From NCBI GenBank assembly GCA_964415565.1, contig CAYQAV010000131.1, forward strand, positions 291 through 64,290: DNA of 64,000 nucleotides, in the 5' to 3' direction. The first letter of the stretch is position 1; every line of letters starts with the position of its first letter. The notes under the pieces were generated by a model that was given only the letters and a program-made list of their open reading frames with translations, searched no databases and was not told where the DNA came from. This DNA is from an uncultured Candidatus Peribacteria bacterium. Its GTDB lineage: Bacteria > Patescibacteriota > Gracilibacteria > BD1-5 > UBA6164. Made by a program: the position numbers and the translations under genes. This document shows positions 7,869 to 40,650 of this stretch, one piece after another.

Positions 7869-8078
7869 TATAAAAATATTATGTGATATAAAAATACAAT
7901 ATTGCTTATTTTTATTTTTATTGTTTTGTTAAATATTAAAAATAAAAAAATGACTATTAATAGAGTATTAATTATTGTTTTTAACATTGTGTAAAAAAGT
8001 TTTAACAAGGTTGTTCTAAAATTGTTAGCAAAAATTAGAAAAATAGTTAAATTTCTCTAAGACACTTTATTTTTTTAT

Positions 8079-10700
8079 ATGTTTGATATGGGTATTAAAG
8101 TTATTAAAACAAGAGATTGAGATTTGTTACACTTCGATAGAAGTAGAATAGAGAGAGTTATAGAAAAAGCAGCCGAAAGTGTATGAGAAAAAAACCTAGA
8201 TTTTGTAGATTTTATAACTGATAATGTAATTCAAGCATTAGAGTTAAAATTAGAAAAATTTGATAAATCTCAGTTTATAACTGTTGAAATGATTCAAGAC
8301 CAAGTAGAAAGAGAATTAATGGAATCTTGATATTTTCAAGTAATGAAACATTTTATTATCTACAGAAGTAAAAGAGCCGAAGCAAGAGAAAAAGCAAAAG
8401 AAAAAGTAGAAAAAAAATTATCTGAAAATACATTTAAAATTATTAAAACTACTTGAAAAAAAGAAAGTTTTGATATGGATAAAATAGAAAAAACTTATAA
8501 AATCGTAAGTTATTGATTAGCTAGAAAATGTAGATTTGAAGAAATAAGTGATAGTTTTAGAAAATATATCGTTGAATGAATGAAAACAAACGATATAACT
8601 AAGATGCTTATTAAATCAGCTATAGATTTGATTTCTATTGAAAATACTTCTTGGCAATTTATTGCTTGAAGATTGGCTTTAATTGATTTGTATAAAGAAG
8701 CTTCAAACAATAGAAAAATGGATATCAAAAAAATATATGAAGCAAAACATTATGCTGAATTATTTGATGAATATGTAAAATTATGATTATATTCTAAAAA
8801 TTTCTATAATTATTATACAAAAGAAGATATTTTAGAAGCAGGTAAATACTTGAAAAAAGATTATGATTTTGAATACAATTATACAACTATTTTGATGTAT
8901 AAAAAAAGATATCTTTTAAATCCAAATAAGAAAATAAAAGAATTACCTCAAGAAATGTATATGAGTATTGCTCTATTTTTAGCTATGCCTGAACCAAAGG
9001 AAAATAGATTAAAAATTGCAAAAAAGATATATGATTATTGTGCTACTGGTAAAATTTCTCTACCAACTCCAACTCTATTAAATGCTAGAACAAATTTTCA
9101 TCAATTATCTAGTTGTTTTAAATTTAATGTTGAAGATGATTTAAGAGCAATTTATCATTCTATTGAAAATATGGCACAAGTTTCTAAATTTTGAGGATGA
9201 ATTTGAGTTTATCTTTGAAATATTAGAAGTAGAGGGGCAAATATTAGATGAGTAAAAGGTGCTGCAGGTTGAGTTAATCCTTGGATTAAAGTTATAAATG
9301 ATACTGCAGTTGCAGTAAATCAATTGTGAGCTAGAGCTTGAGCAATAAGTGTAACTTTAGATGTTTTTCATAGAGATATATATAGTTTTCTTGATATTCA
9401 AACTGAAACTTGAGATATAAGAAATAAAAGTTTTGATGTATTTCCAGCGGTTTCATTTCCAGATTTATTTATGGAAAGAGTAGCAAATGATGAAAATTGG
9501 ACACTTTTTGATCCAAAAGAAGTAACTGATTTTACAGGTAAAAAATTACAAGATCACTTTTGAGCTGAATTTGAAGTTTTTTATTCTGAGTGTGAAAAAA
9601 ATGAAAAATTAGAATTAAAAGAAGTTATTTCTGCAAGAGATTTGTTTAAAAAATTTTTAAAAGCAACTGTTGAAACTGGTATGCCTTATGCATTTTTTAG
9701 AGATACAGTAAATAAAGCAAATCCAAATAAACATGCTTGAAATATATATTCAACTCAACTTTGTGTTGAAATATGTCAAAATACAAGTCCTTCTAAATTT
9801 ATAGAAGAAACAATTGAAGATGGAAAAATAATTATAAAATACGAGCCAGGAGATAGCGTAGTTTGTAACCTAGCATCAATAAATGTTGCAAAAGTTAATA
9901 CTCCTGACGATATCAAAAAAGTACTTCCAGTTGCTATGAGATTACTTGATAATGTAATTGATTTAAATTTCTATCCTATAAAAGAAGCTGAAAAAACTGC
10001 AAAAAAATATAGATCTGTTTGACTTGGATTTTTATGACTTGCTGAATATTTAGCTGTAAATAAATTGGCATACGATAGTAAAGAAGCAAGAACAGTTGTT
10101 GATGAATTATTTGAAAAATATGCATATCAAACTCTTAAATCTTCAAATGAATTAGCAACAGAAAGAGGAACTTATGAAGTTTATAAATGAAGTGAATGGT
10201 CTAAATGAATATTATTTCAAAAAGATGCTAATTGGTTTAGAAATAATTCAAAAATGAGTGCTGACTGGTTAGAATTAATAGAAAATATTAAAAAAACTTG
10301 AGTAAGATTTGCTTATCACTTAGCTCCAGCACCAAATACTTCTACTGCTTTAGTAGTTGGTACAACAGCTTCAATTTTACCTATTTATAAAAAATATTTT
10401 GTTGAAACAAATGCAATTGCACCAAGTGTAAATGTGGCACCAAACTTAGATGAAGAAAATTTTTGGTATTACAAAGAATATGTAAATATGAATATGAATG
10501 ATGTAATTGATATGGTTTCAGTTATATATAAATGGATAGATCAATCAATCTCATTTGAATGGATGATAAACCCTGCAAATGTTTCTCCAAAAGAGCTTTA
10601 TGAATACTATTTTAAAGCACATAGAGAATGAATTAAAACAGTTTATTATGTTAGATCTATGAGTCTTGAAGTAAAAGAATGTGTAAGTTGTAGTTGATAA
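8079..10700 (+). CDS. nrdA: class I ribonucleotide reductase alpha subunit with N-terminal ATP-cone (873 aa)
   Basis: ATP-cone VIKTRDGDLLHFDRSRIERVI. LPTPTLLNARTNFHQLSSCF. KFGGGIGVYLGNIRSRGANIRG with TGA at 9192, 9198, 9204. STQLCVEI. C-terminal CVSCSG. ATG at 8088 is an alternative start. Confidence 0.9.
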
Positions 10701-34421: not shown

Positions 34422-35960
34422 ATGATAAGTAAAATAAACTCTATTGCTATAAACTGAATTGTTTCTGATTTGATAGAAGTTGAAGTTGATATAAATACAT
34501 GACTTCCTAGTTTTACGATAGTTTGATTGCCTGACCAATGAGTTCAAGAAAGTAAGGAAAGGATTAGATCAGCTTTAAAGTCTAGTAATTCAAAATTACC
34601 AACTTCTAGAATTACTATAAATCTAGCACCAGCAGATATAAAAAAATCATGACCTAATTTTGATCTAGCAATTGCAATTGGGATATTAAATCATGAATGA
34701 GTTATAAATGATGATTATTTAATAGATAGTATATTTGTCTGAGAATTGTCTCTTGATTGAAAACTTAGAAAGATTTCAGGAGTGCTACCAAGTACTATTT
34801 GAGCAAAGGAAAAATGATTTAAAAGAATATTTTTACCACTTGAAAACTCACTAGAAGCATCAATTATTCCTTGAATTGATATAGTTTGAATAAATAATTT
34901 AACTGATTTAATTGATATCTTAAATAAAGATAAACCGTTAGAATTAATTCCAAAACTGGATTTTAAAAATTTAAATAAAGATGATTTTATAGATTCTAAA
35001 TATGATTTAAAATATATTTTATGACAAAATCATGCAAAAAGAGCTCTTGAAATAGCTGCAAGTTGAGGACACAATATAATTATGAGCTGACCACCAGGTT
35101 CTGGAAAAACTATGCTTAGTAGAGCATTTTCAACAATACTTCCTGATTTAACAATTGATGAAGCAATAGAAGTTTCAAAAATTTATAGTATTTCAGGACT
35201 TTTAAATAGTGAAAATCCTATAATTACAAGAAGACCATTTAGAGTTATACATCATACTGCAAGTTCTGTGAGTATTATTTGATGATGAAGAAATGCAAAA
35301 CCAGGTGAGATTTCTCTAGCACATAAATGAGTTTTGTTTTTGGATGAAGTTTTGGAGTTTAATAAAAGTGTTTTGGAGGTTTTAAGACAACCAATCGAAG
35401 ATTGAGAAATCACAGTAAATAGGATAAATGCAAGTCTGACTTATCCAGCTAAATTTATATTAGTTTGAGCTATGAATCCTTGTCCTTGTGGTTTTTTATC
35501 TGATCCAGACAAAGATTGTATTTGTACTTTTAGGCAAATAGAAAATTATAAAAGCAAACTTTCATGACCACTTATAGACAGGATAGATATATTTATAGAA
35601 GTACCAAAAGTAAAAGTATGAGAATTTAAAGTTGATGAAAAATATGAAAATGCAGTTACTTCTAAAATCATAAAAGACAAGGTTGAAAAGTCTAGAATTA
35701 TCCAATTAGCTAGATTTAAAAATACAAAAATCACTTTTAATAGTGAGATGACAACAAAGGAAATAAACAAATATTGTCAGCTTGATAGTGAAAGTGAAAA
35801 TATCTTAAAACAAGCAATTGCAAGTTTAAATCTGTCAGCTAGAGCTTATTATAGGATACTCAAATTATCCAGGACTATAGCGGATTTAGAGTGAAGTGAT
35901 GATATAAAAAAAGAGCATATATTGGAAGCTCTTAGTTTTAGGAAGAGGGAGGAGAAATAA
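34422..35960 (+). CDS. comM: Mg-chelatase-like competence protein ComM/YifB (512 aa)
   Basis: [102 protein letters not shown]. Confidence 0.9.
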
Positions 35961-35967
35961 TATTTAA

Positions 35968-36022
35968 CTAGCATTTTCAAAAATTATTTTTATAATAAAA
36001 ACAAAAATTAAATATAATTATA
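35968..36022 (+). repeat. 55-bp direct repeat, left copy
   Basis: ctagcattttcaaaaattatttttataataaaaacaaaaattaaatataattata; 52/55 identical to 39566-39620. Contains a TATAAT. Confidence 0.85.
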
Positions 36023-36040
36023 GATTAATAAAAAAAATTT

Positions 36041-37510
36041 ATGAATAATCAAATATTATCAAAATATGATACAAAAATAACTCTAGATTTTTTATTAAAA
36101 GAAAAAGAGTCAGTTATTTTTGAAAGAAAATGAATTTTTAAACCAGATGGAGATATTTGATTTTCTCCTTCAAAAGTTGCTAGTGAGATTATTTGAATGT
36201 TAAATGCTGATGGTGGTATTTTGGTTTTATGAATTAATTCTGGAGAAATACAAGATTTAAAACTTTTATCAAACACAAAATTTAATGATTATTTACAAGT
36301 TGTTCATCAATTTATAACTCCACCTGCAATAGTTAAATTAGAGGAAATTTATATAGATTGAAAATGTATTTTAGTCTATCATATACCATCAGAAAAAGAA
36401 AGAATTTTTTGTAGAAAAGATAATGAGGAAGTTTGGTTCAGAAATTGAGATGAAACAATAAAATTAGATAGAGAAGCAGTAAAGGTACTAGAATATAATA
36501 AATCTATAAGAAAATTTGAAGAAGAAAAAAGAGATGACTTTGATAAAGAAGACCTGAGAGAAAGTGTTTTGGAATATTACAAAAAGAAAATAAATTTTAA
36601 CTGAAGTTATGATGATTTATTAGTATATAGAAATTTAGCAATAAAAAAAGATTGAAAGTATATTTATAATAATGCAGCAATCTTACTATTTGCTGAAAAT
36701 ACTGAAAAGTATATAAGTTCTTCTTCAGTAAGATATGTAAGATATTCTTGAATAAAATTAGAATCAGGAAGAAATTTTAATGTTATAAAAGATCAACCAT
36801 TTGAATGATGTATACCAAGACTTATAGAATTAGTAAAAAGATTTTTGAGTAGTGTTTTTAGAGATTATTATTATTTAGATTTAGAAACTTGAAAATTTAA
36901 TAAAATTCCTGAGTATCCTGAAGATGCTTGGCTGGAATGATTAGTAAATGCATTAACTCACAGGTCTTATAATATTCACTGAAATGTTATTTATATTAAA
37001 CATTATGATGATAGACTTGAAATTTCAAATTCTTGACCATTGCCAATGTGAGTAACTGTCAAAAATATAAGAGAAAGGAGATTTTCAAGAAATCCAAAGA
37101 TAGCAAAAGTTTTATATGAAATGTGATATGTAAGAGAATTAAATGAATGAGTAAAAAGAATCTATGAATCAATGGAAAAGTCTTTTTTATGTGAACCAGA
37201 ATATATTGATAAAGAAAATATTGTTACTCTTGTGTTAAAAAATAATGTATCAAAGGATGAAGACACTATTTCTGAAAAAACTATGAAAAGAATAGAAAAT
37301 ATATTTATTTCTTTGAATGATAGTGAAAAACAAATACTTAGTTATTTATTGATTAATAAAAAATCTACAGTTCTAGAATTGAAAGAGAATATTAATATTT
37401 CAATTCAAATGATTAGACAGTATATTAACAATTTTATAGAAATTGAAATAGTTTCTAGAGATAGTGAAAAAATTAGAGACAAAAATGCTATATATAAAAT
37501 TAAGAAATAG
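36041..37510 (+). CDS. AlbA_2/Schlafen-type putative DNA-binding ATPase-like protein with C-terminal wHTH (COG2865-like, 489 aa)
   Basis: ESVIFERKG..SEIIGMLNADGGILVLGI (AlbA_2), RFSRNPKIAKVLYEMGYVRELNEGVKRI (HATPase_c_4-like), C-terminal QILSYLLINKKSTVLELKENINISIQMIRQYINNFIE. Confidence 0.75.
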
Positions 37511-37528
37511 ATTAATCTAAATTAATTT

Positions 37529-37631
37529 AAAATAAGGAAAGTAAAATTAAATATAAATTTGTCTTTATTTTAAGCTATTTTATAAAAACAAGGAAAGTTT
37601 AATAAAAAATAAGGAAAGTAAAATTAATATT
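37529..37631 (+). promoter_or_regulatory. three direct repeats centred on AAGGAAAGT
   Basis: aaaatAAGGAAAGTaaaattaa (core 37534), aaaacAAGGAAAGTttaataa (core 37590), aaaatAAGGAAAGTaaaattaa (core 37611). The last two cores are 21 bp apart. The third copy ends 13 nt before the ATG at 37644. Confidence 0.5.
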
Positions 37632-37643
37632 AAAATCTATATT

Positions 37644-38363
37644 ATGCAAAACAAAGAAATCACATTTTCAGATGCAATAGAACAAGTTATGATAAATAAT
37701 TGATTTTATGCACCACTTTCTCTTATTTATAAAGAATTTTGAAAATATAGAGAAAAAACTTGATTAACTACAGATAATACAATTCAAGAAAGAGTTCAAA
37801 GAGATAAAAGATTTACTAAAATTGGTTATTGAGTTTATGCTTTAACTGAATTTTTAGATAAATTACCAAAAGAAAAGCCTATAAAAACAGAAAAAGATAA
37901 GATTGAAAGAATGCATTCAAGAATTCAATGAATGCTTATTGAAATTTGAAATATGAATTGATATGATACATATACTCCTGATAAAAATTGAATTTTTATA
38001 AACAAAGAAATTTGAAAACTAGCTACTCTTGATAAAATTCCACAATTCACATATGAAAAAATTATCAATGATTCTATAAGATTTGTTGATGTAATTTGGT
38101 TTAATGAAAGATGATTTCCTGCAAAATTGATAGAAGTTGAAAATTCTACAGATTTTAGAGCTTGATTTATAAAAATGAATGAAATTCAAGATTTTAGAAC
38201 TGATTTTTTATTTATTGCACCAGAAGAAAGAAAAAATAAATTTGATACTGAAAGACAAAAAATTGCATTTAAAAATATAAAAGATAGATGTATATTTCAA
38301 ACTTATGATTTTGTAGAAAATTGGTACAATAATCATATTGAATGAAAAAAGTTTAAAATATAA
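37644..38363 (+). CDS. HARE-HTH domain + PD-(D/E)XK-like nuclease candidate (239 aa); putative restriction endonuclease
   Basis: N-terminus ITFSDAIEQVMINNGFYAPLSLIYKEF..TIQERVQRDKRFTKIGYGVYAL (HARE-HTH pattern). C-terminus HSRIQGMLIEIGNMNGY..VDVIWFNERGFPAKLIEVENS (D...EVE core). Confidence 0.55.
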
Positions 38364-38441
38364 TTTTACTACTTATAATCTGTTGTAATTCATGAGTTTT
38401 CATGTAAAATAAGCCAATATTTAATATTGACTTATTTTTTT

Positions 38442-39512
38442 ATGAACTACCTTTGATCAAAAAAATCATTAATAGAATTTATAGAAAAATCTATAAATTC
38501 TATAGTTAGTGAAAAAAAATATACATTTTCTGATCTTTTTGCTTGAACTTGAATAGTTTGAAGATATTTTAAAGAGAAATGACATAGTGTAATCGCAAAT
38601 GATTTGCAATATTATAGCTTTGTATTAAATAAAAACTATATCTGAAATCATACTGATTTATATTTTTCTTGATTAAGAGAAAAAATCCCAGAATTATTTG
38701 TTTGAGATGTAAATAATTATAAAGAAATAGTTTGTAATTATCTAAATTGATTGAAATGAAAAAAATGATTTATATATAAAAACTATTCTGTTTGATGAAC
38801 AAAATGAGAAGAATACGAAAGAATGTATTTCTCAGATGAAAATGCAATGAAATGTGATGCAATAAGAAGTAAGATTGAAAAATGGAAAGATAAAGAACTT
38901 ATAACTGAAAACGAATATTATTTTTTATTAACAAGTTTATTAGAAAATATAGATAAGGTTGCAAATACTGCTTCTGTTTACTGAGCTTTTTTGAAAAAAT
39001 TAAAAAAATCAGCAGAAAAAGTTATGTTTTTAAAACCAGCAGATTTTTTCTTAAATGATCACGAACATACAGTTTATAATTCAGATGTAAATGAATTAAT
39101 TAAAAATACTTCTCACGAAGTTGTATATTTGGATCCACCATATAATGAAAGACAATATAGTGCAAATTATCATGTACTTGAAACAATAGCAAAATATGAT
39201 AAACCAAAACTAAAATGAAAAACTTGAATGAGAGATTATAGTAAACAAAAATCACTTTATTGTAAAAAAACAGAAGTTAAGAATTCATTTAGAGAATTAA
39301 TCCAAAATATAGATGCAAAATATGTATTTTTGAGCTATAATTGTGAATGATTAATGAATATAGATGAAATAAAAGAAATAATGTCTTCAAGATGAGAATA
39401 TTGAGTTTTTACTAAAGAATATAAAAGATTTAAAGCAGATAAAACAGAAAATAGAAATCATAAAAAAGTATGAGTAACTGAATATTTACATTATGTTAAA
39501 ATAATGAATTAA
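38442..39512 (+). CDS. D12-class N6-adenine DNA methyltransferase (356 aa)
   Basis: MNYLGSKKSLIEFI, motif I DLFAGTGIVG, motif IV VYLDPPYN. Target sequence cannot be inferred. Confidence 0.85.
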
Positions 39513-39515
39513 ATA

Positions 39516-39560
39516 AAAAACAATCATTTTGTCGGAGCTGACAAAATGGTTGTTTTTTAT
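39516..39560 (+). terminator. intrinsic terminator after the methylase gene
   Basis: Stem aaaaacaatcattttgtc/gacaaaatggttgttttt, loop ggagct, T-run. Confidence 0.7.
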
Positions 39561-39565
39561 TTTTT

Positions 39566-39620
39566 CTAGCATTTTCAAAAAATATTTTTATAATAAAAAC
39601 CAAAATTAAATTTAATTATA
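39566..39620 (+). repeat. 55-bp direct repeat, right copy
   Basis: ctagcattttcaaaaaatatttttataataaaaaccaaaattaaatttaattata; it ends 4 nt before the ATG at 39625. Confidence 0.85.
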
Positions 39621-39624
39621 AAAG

Positions 39625-40650
39625 ATGAAAATAAGTATTTTTGCTTCGATTTGAGCACAAAACCTTTGAGATGAACTGATATTAAAAAACGAAATAAAAC
39701 TTTTAAAGAAAGAGTATTGAGAAGATACTAAATTTAGAGTTTTTACTTACGATAAAAAAAATCCATTTTTTATTGACGAAAATGTAGTTTATAGTGAATA
39801 TTTTCCAATTTTAATAAGAGAATGAAAAAAAATATTTAAAAATTTAATCAATTTTTTTATATTTATTTTTAGTGTTATTTGAAGTGATTTAATAGTTATA
39901 GGTTGAGGTTGAATCATATATGACAATGAAGTACAATCTACAAAAAATCCTCTAGATTCTTGGATTTTTAGAGTAAGAGTTTTTAGATTTTTTAGAAAGA
40001 AATTCAGATTTTTTAGAGTTTGAATAAATATTAAAAATGAACTTAGTTTAAAAAAAGTTAAAAAAATATTTAAAAAAGCTTATAAAATAGAAGTAAGAGA
40101 TAATTATAGTTTTGAATTATTGAAATCTTTGTGAATAGAATCAAGTATAGAAAAAGACCCAGTTTTCTATGATGCTTGAGAATTAGTAATTGATAAATCT
40201 ATAATTTGAACTATTTCATCATATCATTTTGATAAAACTTTATTTAAAGATTTTGACTTAGTTTGAAAAAAAATTGGTTTGGCAATAAGAGCTTGATATT
40301 TTTTTGAACAATCAAACATATCTTCAAGGATGGAAGAGTGAAGAGTTAGAGAAATAATAAATTATTTAGTTTCAGAGTGAGCAAGTGTTGTTTTATTACC
40401 TCATAGTTTTCACGAAACTGATGAATTGGCAAATGATTTCTTGTTTATGAGTAATTTTATTTGAGAAGAGTGAGTTAGTATAAAAGAAAATATGACAGAA
40501 GTTTATGAAACTTATACAAAAAAAGAAATTGATATCTGCATTGCTATGAGATTACACTCTATAATTCTTAGTCATGTTTATAAGATTCCTTTTATTTGAG
40601 TTAGTTATTCTACAAAAACAGATGAAGTTTTAAATGAATTAAAAAAATAA
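39625..40650 (+). CDS. polysaccharide pyruvyl transferase family protein (341 aa)
   Basis: MKISIFASIGAQNLGDELIL..LIVIGGGGIIYD..VVLLPHSF..CIAMRLHSIILS. Confidence 0.7.

Follow-up and report, generated by a model that had tools for sequence, protein, structure and literature searches.

A candidate Type II restriction–modification pair and a Schlafen–ATPase protein in a probable defence islet inserted with long target duplication in a code-25 bacterium

Restriction–modification (R–M) systems of all types are known to enter genomes by 'insertion with long target duplication', for which Furuta, Abe and Kobayashi 2010 set out as criteria a restriction gene together with a modification gene, an insert of less than 20 kb, no mobility genes and a repeat of more than 30 bp (PMC2853133). 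Among the Type II restriction endonucleases is R.NmeDI of Neisseria meningitidis, which recognizes RCCGGY and cuts on both sides of its site, at a distance (PMC2095814). A further group of proteins joins a Schlafen domain to a GHKL ATPase domain; this 'Schlatpase' supradomain is widespread, occurring in 60,692 of 103,533 prokaryotic Schlafen proteins, and its carriers are mostly small, with more than 90% of their tails being helix-turn-helix (HTH) domains (bioRxiv 10.64898/2026.05.29.728809). Related Schlafen–GHKL modules are tRNases that are activated through ATP-driven oligomerization (bioRxiv 10.64898/2026.05.29.728809), and the Schlatpase-HTH architecture is described in the literature as widespread and linked to diverse nuclease-based systems, without fixed partners. 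Here we describe a locus of three genes, referred to here as A, B and C, on a 64,000-nucleotide (nt) stretch of contig CAYQAV010000131.1 from an uncultured Candidatus Peribacteria bacterium; this whole stretch is referred to as the window. The locus is likely to be a defence islet of about 3.5 kb that arrived by long target duplication and carries two functionally independent modules, the candidate R–M pair B–C and the Schlafen-type protein A. Its three genes are as follows.

36041–37510, plus strand: gene A, 489 amino acids (aa), Schlatpase-HTH protein (COG2865), assigned from Pfam, PADLOC and the invariant residues of its family
37644–38363, plus strand: gene B, 239 aa, two-domain candidate Type II restriction endonuclease, assigned from PADLOC, a Pfam listing and an AlphaFold model
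38442–39512, plus strand: gene C, 356 aa, predicted α-class D12 N6-adenine methyltransferase, assigned from Pfam and PADLOC

Under translation table 11 the region 36041–39512 yields short open reading frame (ORF) fragments only. When TGA is read as sense, ORFs of 100 aa or more add up to 79 kb instead of 10.5 kb in the window, which has a G+C content of about 23%, and reading TAG or TAA as sense brings no comparable gain there. The three co-directional frames reported in the first-pass annotation are recovered in full once TGA is taken as glycine, with 17, 12 and 21 in-frame TGA codons in A, B and C, respectively. The window comes from a code-25 organism, in which TGA encodes glycine, because TGA falls on the glycines of conserved motifs (GPPGSGKT in the upstream ComM-like gene and FAGTG in methylase C) and because every TGA position of B is a glycine in homologues from standard-code organisms. 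The nearest relatives of the window genes carry the label Candidatus Gracilibacteria. No tRNA gene was found by ARAGORN in the 64 kb, and a suppressor tRNA-Gly(UCA) is thus not in the window. Public protein databases store TGA as tryptophan, and their entries P0001 and P0121 are 95% and 97% identical, respectively, to the code-25 translation.

The three genes are enclosed by a duplicated sequence and two border genes, which together define the islet.

34422–35960, plus strand: comM-like Mg-chelatase/AAA gene, the left border (code-25 ORF with GPPGSGKT)
35963–36036, plus strand: left copy of the duplicated target, the comM–pyrT intergenic leader (direct repeat D1)
37521–37641, plus strand: spacer between A and B, in which 44 nt of the B leader are tandemly duplicated (repeats D3/D5)
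39514–39559, plus strand: intrinsic terminator-like hairpin closing the cassette (20-bp stem and T-run)
39561–39634, plus strand: right copy of the duplicated target, running into the start of pyrT (direct repeat, its core and the L098 alignment)
39625–40650, plus strand: polysaccharide pyruvyl-transferase gene (pyrT), the right border (PF04230 on the identical gene of L089)

Between comM and pyrT, the A–B–C block (about 3.5 kb, roughly 36025–39562) is an insertion specific to this lineage: four related metagenomic genomes (L098–L101) have empty sites there, and the intergenic sequence of L098, which is single-copy, can be aligned with each of the two repeat copies in the window. In these four genomes, the ComM proteins of which are 76–94% identical to that of the window, comM is followed directly by pyrT, A, B and C are absent, and the order holB–orf121–comM–pyrT–ogt–udg–pepM3 is conserved. 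The identity of comM is given by the Pfam families ChlI and Mg_chelatase on the identical gene in L089. No repeat in the region is longer than this flanking direct repeat, which spans 74 nt and has copies that are 85% identical; the window contains two occurrences of its 35-nt core and no more, against none expected by chance. On the left, the repeat occupies the stretch after the comM stop codon, ending just short of A; on the right, it comes after the terminator of C. The block had been described as repeat-flanked, which this direct repeat bears out, and the empty sites show in addition that it was inserted. A metagenome scan with the repeat core returned no match from a collection that also missed L090, a contig known to contain the pattern.

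The block has every feature named by Furuta, Abe and Kobayashi: restriction and modification genes, a length under 20 kb, no mobility genes and a direct repeat of more than 30 bp that is single-copy at the empty site of relatives. It differs from the published insertions in that it also carries a non-R–M defence gene, A, in that its host is a code-25 bacterium of the candidate phyla radiation, and in that the empty sites come from related species or strains and not from the same strain. Probably the three genes came in together, or A was a later addition, placed between the left repeat and B. Between A and B are two copies of a 44-nt B leader (37521–37564 and 37598–37641), which are 73–86% identical and contain AAGGAAAG. 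Homology to the R–M unit of the closest genome, L009, begins at the second of these copies (37599), and the duplication may mark the junction of two originally separate pieces.

Within the left repeat copy is a promoter-like site (35989–36018). The hairpin after C is the only terminator-like structure in 35900–39700, where it accounts for 4 overlapping calls against 0.2 expected, and the A–B spacer contains no terminator-like site. By this layout, A, B and C probably share a transcript, the duplicated leader being used by pyrT as well as by the cassette.

Inside the islet, B and C form a unit of their own. Homologues of B were collected at 88 loci, of which 80 represent one genome per species and 8 are additional, and these loci were probed with the three window proteins, relatives of A being sought within ±7 kb of B. 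In the window C starts 78 nt downstream of B. In every Gracilibacteria/Peribacteria relative with sufficient flanking sequence (L009, L010 and L012–L016), the gene that comes next after B is a full-length relative of C, and this also holds in some other phyla (L027, L043 and L075); the identities of B and C to the window proteins co-vary, with a Spearman coefficient of 0.945. Read under code 25, the nuclease of L009 is 97% and its methylase 92% identical to that of the window. The two genomes have only 37599–39512 in common, at 91% nucleotide identity, with nothing shared on either side. This span starts about 45 nt upstream of B and comprises the B leader, B, the spacer and C to its stop codon; no flanking repeats surround the pair in L009. 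B–C is a two-gene mobile unit, because L009 shares the B leader, B and C alone, and the two genes appear to behave as a cognate pair. A recognizable nuclease core and an adjacent, co-inherited methyltransferase, both expected of a Type II R–M system, are present, and the resemblance to such a pair that had been noted at the outset is supported by the PADLOC matches of the two proteins, their adjacency and their co-inheritance.

Gene A follows a different pattern. No relative of A was found near B in any of the 88 loci (80 different species), and ten close B–C contexts (L009–L016, L103 and L105) have other upstream genes and no A. The slot upstream of B is occupied variously by DndB-like, Mur ligase, AAA_15/AbiEii-like ATPase and NYN proteins, an N6_N4 methylase, an HTH–HNH protein, a membrane-anchored DpnI_C protein and GmrSD. 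Neither B nor C was found near the relatives of A in L095, L096 and L097. The order A–B–C is seen only in contigs that are at least 99.96% identical to the window; these (L089–L094) belong to the same population and offer no independent context. With no A beside B in the 88 loci and a changing set of genes upstream of B, A falls outside the B–C unit and appears to be only its neighbour, a Schlatpase-HTH protein that stands alone and is no dedicated partner.

The first-pass annotation had proposed either a three-component module or two independent systems sharing an island. An integrated system, in which A senses infection or controls B–C, or serves as its dedicated abortive-infection back-up, would account for the presence of all three genes inside a single target-duplication footprint, co-directional and with no terminator until after C. 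It would also agree with the report that Schlafen–ATPase–DNA-binding proteins are 'tightly associated' with R–M, BREX (bacteriophage exclusion) and type I CRISPR systems (PMC13462974). In L095, moreover, the closest relative of A is directly upstream of a different methylase–nuclease pair, an EcoRI-type methylase and a GmrSD_N–HNH protein (7870–10100). Against these points stand the 88 loci without A near B, the ten close B–C pairs with other genes in front of them, the end of the L009-shared unit about 45 nt upstream of B, which excludes A, the pairing of A's relatives with unrelated systems and the confinement of the A–B–C order to one population. No recurrent triplet was found in unrelated genomes, either among the 88 loci or among the loci of A's relatives. 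Judged by the refuting condition that the first-pass annotation itself set, absence of such co-occurrence in other genomes, the three-component module fails, and an integrated system appears improbable; two independent systems sharing an island, the fallback proposed with it, is the reading that the evidence favours.

The candidate nuclease B is composed of two domains.

37644–37877, plus strand: N-terminal domain of B (residues 1–78), winged helix, HARE-HTH-like and presumed to bind DNA (Foldseek, PF05066)
37893–38348, plus strand: C-terminal domain of B (residues 84–235), NmeDI_C, of PD-(D/E)XK type, with E100, D149, E164-V-E166 and K177

The C-terminal domain matches the PADLOC profile for Type II restriction endonucleases (REase_II, E = 2.9e-10), with residues 86–233 aligned to positions 173–329 of a 351-position profile, the length of which equals that of R.NmeDI (351 aa). 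Pfam family PF27126 (NmeDI_C) is a precomputed database assignment for the window's own B (P0001) and for all 120 listed homologues; it was taken from the database listing and not rescored, and the PADLOC profile supports it independently. The older local Pfam and NCBIfam models gave no match to B. Plasmid relatives of the C-terminal domain are annotated as type II restriction endonucleases. The view that the nuclease resembles no restriction enzyme family that can be named was therefore wrong. The D...EVE-type core that had been noted at the C-terminus is present: the motif VDVIWFNERGFPAKLIEVENS spans residues 148–168, and E100, D149, E164, E166 and K177 are invariant across 57 homologues.

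An AlphaFold model of B, built from an alignment of the 57 sequences, reached a predicted local distance difference test score (pLDDT) of 90 and a predicted template modelling score (pTM) of 0.86; the first row of the alignment was the stored version with tryptophan at TGA, and the glycine columns were supplied by standard-code homologues. The secondary structure of the model fits an α-β-β-β-α-β core. D149 precedes strand 150–153, E164 and E166 are at the end of strand 159–165, E100 belongs to the long helix that comes before and K177 to the helix that comes after. This E...D...ExE arrangement we take to be the usual PD-(D/E)XK layout in its BamHI-like ExE variant. In Foldseek comparisons with the PDB, the first ~72 residues resembled forkhead winged-helix domains (probability 0.99 over 72 columns). 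The restriction enzyme EcoT38I was matched with a probability of 0.97, a weak hit, and the nucleases MUS81, Can2, BsaWI and YaeQ were also matched weakly (best E of the nuclease hits 0.016, template modelling scores 0.2–0.3). A lectin match in the PDB sequence search was rejected as a repeat artefact.

Like R.NmeDI, B appears modular, with a recognition part and a separate cleavage domain, and residues ~86–233 align to the C-terminal half of the profile; unlike R.NmeDI, it has 239 rather than 351 residues, and an unrelated winged helix of ~78 residues replaces the N-terminal half. The partners also differ, M.NmeDI being a C5-cytosine methylase and C a D12 adenine methylase. Both domains of B are independent modules: the C-terminal domain is found at the C-terminus of proteins of 295–418 aa and alone in proteins of ~180 aa, and the N-terminal domain is found in other fusions. 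In L005, L006 and L013 a 230-aa protein begins with 76 residues that are 73% identical to the N-terminal domain of B and continues into an HNH_2 nuclease, so that at this locus one winged-helix module has been shuffled between two nuclease types. This HTH–HNH_2 protein is directly upstream of a B homologue and beside an N6_N4 methylase (L006, 5274–5966). Spread over many phyla of bacteria and archaea, the B family comprises more than 455 clusters at 90% identity; a 50%-identity library contains 1,144 representatives at E ≤ 0.001, domain-only matches included, and the viral contigs searched contained no relative of B.

The description of C as a D12 adenine methylase with FAGTG and DPPY is upheld by its match to MethyltransfD12 (PF02086, E = 1.8e-47, residues 3–312). 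FAGTG is at residue 33 (38538–38552) and DPPY at residue 231 (39132–39143), in the order of the α class. C also matches the PADLOC profile MTase_II (E = 2.4e-116) and half of a profile for FokI-sized double methylases (E = 4e-86, positions 1–337 of 646), and it has no relative in the PDB at E ≤ 0.01. Membership of the Dam (GATC) family was ruled out, the score with TIGR00571 being 21.3 bits against a cutoff of 114.85.

Several observations weigh against reading the islet as an orthodox R–M pair beside an independent module. First, no solved structure is significantly similar to B (none at E ≤ 0.001 by Foldseek), and sequence and profile searches of B, of its N-terminal domain and of its C-terminal domain against PDB sequences returned nothing real. 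Second, the N-terminal domain was initially labelled HARE-HTH-like, of which the winged-helix fold is supported by Foldseek, whereas PF05066 (HARE-HTH), the only recurrent family, is matched below threshold by 11 of 18 N-terminal domains of the family (best E = 0.0015) and not by the window's own copy; the label is plausible. Third, the single insertion footprint and the apparent single transcription unit leave room for a functional link between A and B–C in this lineage. Fourth, the nuclease is commonly found without a methylase. A census with D12 and N6_N4 queries, scored in tblastn-based coverage classes in the neighbourhood of B, found an intact methylase next to B in ~13 of the 80 species, 7 of which are Gracilibacteria/Peribacteria; 22 species have only fragments or frameshifted methylases, 42 have none next to B, and 3 could not be scored owing to contig ends. 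B is hence kept without an intact adjacent methylase in ~64 of 80 species. These orphan genes are full-length, keep the catalytic residues and are under purifying selection, with ratios of nonsynonymous to synonymous substitution rates (dN/dS) of 0.06–0.18, similar to those of B copies with methylases (0.015–0.19). Last, stand-alone fusions of a winged helix and a nuclease have been shown to be Type IV enzymes dependent on N6-methyladenine (m6A), some of them next to frameshifted methylases (Helbrecht et al. 2024, PMC11037411).

The remnants themselves have a consistent form. The upstream N6_N4 remnant is typically an N-terminal part without the catalytic PPY and abuts an intact B; such truncated halves abut B in L019, L026, L061 and L086, and L040 and L041 each have a frameshifted methylase. 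Insertion of B into an N6_N4 methylase gene was ruled out, the fragments being mostly N-terminal halves upstream of B and not split halves. Of the 42 methylase-less loci, ~22 extend 5.5 kb or more to both sides of B, and a motif scan of all 42 picked up a methylase-like ORF in 1. At such loci the neighbours of B presumably include genes for glutamyl-tRNA synthetase, DnaB and aspartate kinase.

These data bear on whether B might be a modification-dependent (Type IV-like) or methylase-independent winged-helix–nuclease fusion, with C an unrelated or non-conflicting methylase that merely travels along. The many homologues without an intact neighbouring methylase, the loss or frameshifting of N6_N4 methylases beside an intact B and the selection on orphan copies would all be expected of such an enzyme. 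So would the retention of the gltX neighbour by orphan copies in three Dehalococcoidia genomes, and a Halobacterium plasmid copy with no methylase annotated nearby. In L103 (4088–4609) and L104 (113–634), furthermore, a 173-aa protein predicted to be membrane-anchored and carrying DpnI_C (E = 1e-13), the winged helix that reads m6A in GATC, overlaps the start of a B homologue that is 90% identical to B. Compared with DpnI, HhiV4I, FcyTI and SruGXI (PMC11037411), the B family shares the architecture of a small winged helix plus a nuclease, the frequent stand-alone occurrence and the broken methylases next door; it differs in domain order and families, with an N-terminal HARE-like winged helix and NmeDI_C, and, in the window clade, in its intact and co-inherited adenine methylase.

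What makes a Type IV-like B unlikely is, first, the frequency of methylases. In 38 of 80 species B has next to it a methylase, or what is left of one, from the N6_N4 or D12 class, far above the expectation for Type IV enzymes; mostly the N6_N4 gene is upstream and the D12 gene downstream, co-directional with B. In addition, the divergence of B co-varies with that of C, both genes are intact when the pair is transferred, as in the window itself, and the family of the catalytic domain owes its name to a classical Type II enzyme. A nuclease that depends on m6A would also be self-destructive next to an active m6A methylase, unless the two had different specificities. The flanking methylases and the intact pair of the window fit descent from an R–M system with two methylases, and an R–M function of B–C in the window remains the preferred reading.

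At the level of the family the matter is less simple. An orthodox restriction enzyme should not survive the loss of its methylase. Possible explanations for orphan B genes are a methylase of the same specificity acting in trans, control by a small protein (the 92-aa zinc ribbon or the 62–91-aa families described below) or a different enzymology. That the family of HARE-like-HTH plus NmeDI_C nucleases does not follow orthodox restriction logic is a tentative idea, to which we give a minor but real chance. If true, B proteins would be held in check or directed by modification dependence, by a small partner protein or by a methylase in trans, and the intact B–C pair of the window would be the ancestral or an exceptional state in a family that repeatedly escapes its methylase.

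Small genes recur beside B homologues. A ~92-aa CxxC...CxxC zinc-ribbon protein is encoded in 12 loci and is located between B and the D12 methylase where loci are complete. Loci with small ORFs have them mostly at position +1 (L025–L027, L032, L038, L040, L041, L044, L046, L051, L053 and L087; also L042) or at −1 (L003, L004, L007, L008, L020 and L021). Proteins of 62–66 aa overlap the start of B in L003, L004, L007 and L008, and there is also a family of 85–91 aa. No Pfam family was matched above threshold by the small ORFs beside B homologues, and none of these ORFs is in the window cassette. NYN-domain (ribonuclease-like) proteins also adjoin B homologues in L003, L004 and L021 (+1), L014 (−1) and L015 (−1), and recur in this position in Omnitrophota, Peribacteria and Gracilibacteria.

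Gene A comprises three domains.

36107–36466, plus strand: Schlafen/AlbA_2 domain of A, with the putative catalytic residues E23-x4-E28-x-K30 (invariance and the spacing of Cash)
36926–37237, plus strand: GHKL (HATPase_c_4) ATPase core of A, with E299 and N303 (PF13749 and invariance)
37313–37498, plus strand: C-terminal winged helix-turn-helix of A (sub-threshold TrmB/HTH_24 matches, residues 425–486)

Pfam matches to SLFN_AlbA_2 (PF04326, E = 3.6e-12, residues 44–142) and HATPase_c_4 (PF13749, E = 5.4e-20, residues 314–399), in this order and followed by weak winged-HTH matches at the C-terminus, place A among the Schlatpase-HTH proteins and agree with its first description as a COG2865/Schlafen-like protein of defence islands. 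The family is large, with more than 1,500 relatives at E ≤ 1e-10, and A is 52–54% identical to proteins of Bacteroidota and Pasteurellaceae. E23, E28, K30, E299 and N303 are invariant among 18 homologues. The triad is part of ESVIFERK, and its E-x4-(E)-x-K spacing is that of E17/D22/K24, through which the CRISPR-associated Schlafen protein Cash cleaves tRNA (PMC13462974); the E-x3-N spacing of E299 and N303 is that of E314/N318 of RzAgo, equivalence to the residues of both proteins being drawn from spacing alone. A thus resembles the Schlatpase of RzAgo and the Schlafen tRNase Cash in both Pfam domains, in the E-x4-(D/E)-x-K triad and in the E-x3-N motif, and differs from them in having neither an Argonaute core nor a CARF/Csx15 sensor. 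The PADLOC profile SLFN-pAgo is matched with E = 1.1e-44 over positions 67–460 of 1121 only; with 489 aa and no Argonaute MID–PIWI core, A was ruled out as an SLFN-pAgo protein.

Because the putative catalytic triad and the ATP/Mg residues are conserved across the family, A is probably an enzymatically active, ordinary member of the commonest Schlatpase-HTH class, and by analogy it may be an ATP-switched tRNase. Alternatively, A could be a transcription factor only, as the COG2865 description 'predicted transcriptional regulator' has it, and act on the downstream R–M operon much as a controller protein would. Its C-terminal winged HTH, its place directly in front of the nuclease gene, with which it is co-directional, and weak NCBIfam matches to small transcriptional regulators would suit such a role. 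The invariant Schlafen triad and GHKL Mg/ATP residues argue instead for enzymatic activity, related Schlafen–GHKL modules are ATP-oligomerized tRNases, and B–C pairs elsewhere do without any such gene; a purely regulatory A is accordingly the least probable of the alternatives, and a very remote one. In L096 and L097 (1–9575) a relative of A is located between a PLD–SNF2/Eco57I-methylase block and a MORC-like HATPase_c_3 protein.

For the islet as two independent modules, we infer the following scheme. A, B and C would be co-transcribed from the promoter in the duplicated leader. C would methylate adenine in the B–C target sequence. The N-terminal winged helix (HARE-HTH-like) of B would bind DNA, and its NmeDI_C core of PD-(D/E)XK type, together with K177, would cut unmethylated DNA; if B behaves like R.NmeDI, the cut may fall a little away from the site. 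A would act separately, possibly as a tRNase in abortive infection, with its HTH serving as a DNA-binding or sensor module.

Word frequencies in the window were considered as a guide to the target. GATC is the most depleted word (ratio 0.47, z = −10.6), but it was rejected as a clue to B–C specificity, because Gracilibacteria loci that lack B show the same depletion and L015 and L016, each with the intact pair, show none. ACGT is nearly absent from the window (1 against ~15 expected under a Markov model, ratio 0.06), and TCGA (0.42) and GAATTC (0.34) are likewise under-represented, which points to pressure from restriction systems other than that of the cassette. MboI/DpnII-type systems have two adenine methylases, one D12 and one N6_N4, around one nuclease. 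Loci L027, L040 and L041, the most complete among the relatives, resemble them in having N6_N4, then B, then (zinc ribbon), then D12. B has no similarity to the MboI/DpnII nucleases in any search, however, the window has the D12 methylase only, and the poor Dam-family score of C and a GATC depletion that is not tied to B likewise set the pair apart. In L043 a 649-aa double D12 methylase, which resembles the FokI methylase, is next to B and hints at an asymmetric site, which is only a lead.

Two further observations concern the insertion site. Five independent assemblies of the same population (L090–L094) break inside the cassette, at ~36995 in A and at 38585–39011 in B/C, and these breaks may reflect strain heterogeneity, with presence/absence variants. 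In L099 (6740–6935; the same in L100), the empty comM–pyrT spacer is ~215 nt longer than in the other relatives; the extra segment is G+C-richer and structured-looking, is followed by a hairpin terminator and may be a small RNA gene. No Rfam family was found in the window or in L099.

Nothing in the locus is categorically new: B–C is an uncharacterised member of the Type II R–M systems, A is a typical Schlatpase-HTH protein, the mode of insertion has been published, and so has the loose association of Schlatpase-HTH proteins with nuclease-based defence. The locus is a clean example, complete with empty sites, of R–M insertion with long target duplication in a recoded bacterium of the candidate phyla radiation, and it shows a stand-alone Schlatpase-HTH protein, of a very abundant class, in its native operon setting. 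It also defines a widespread architecture of ~240 aa, a winged helix joined to NmeDI_C, which, if sequence-specific, would possibly be a compact new restriction enzyme. For the family as a whole, it is a real puzzle that purifying selection should maintain the nuclease after its methylases have been lost.

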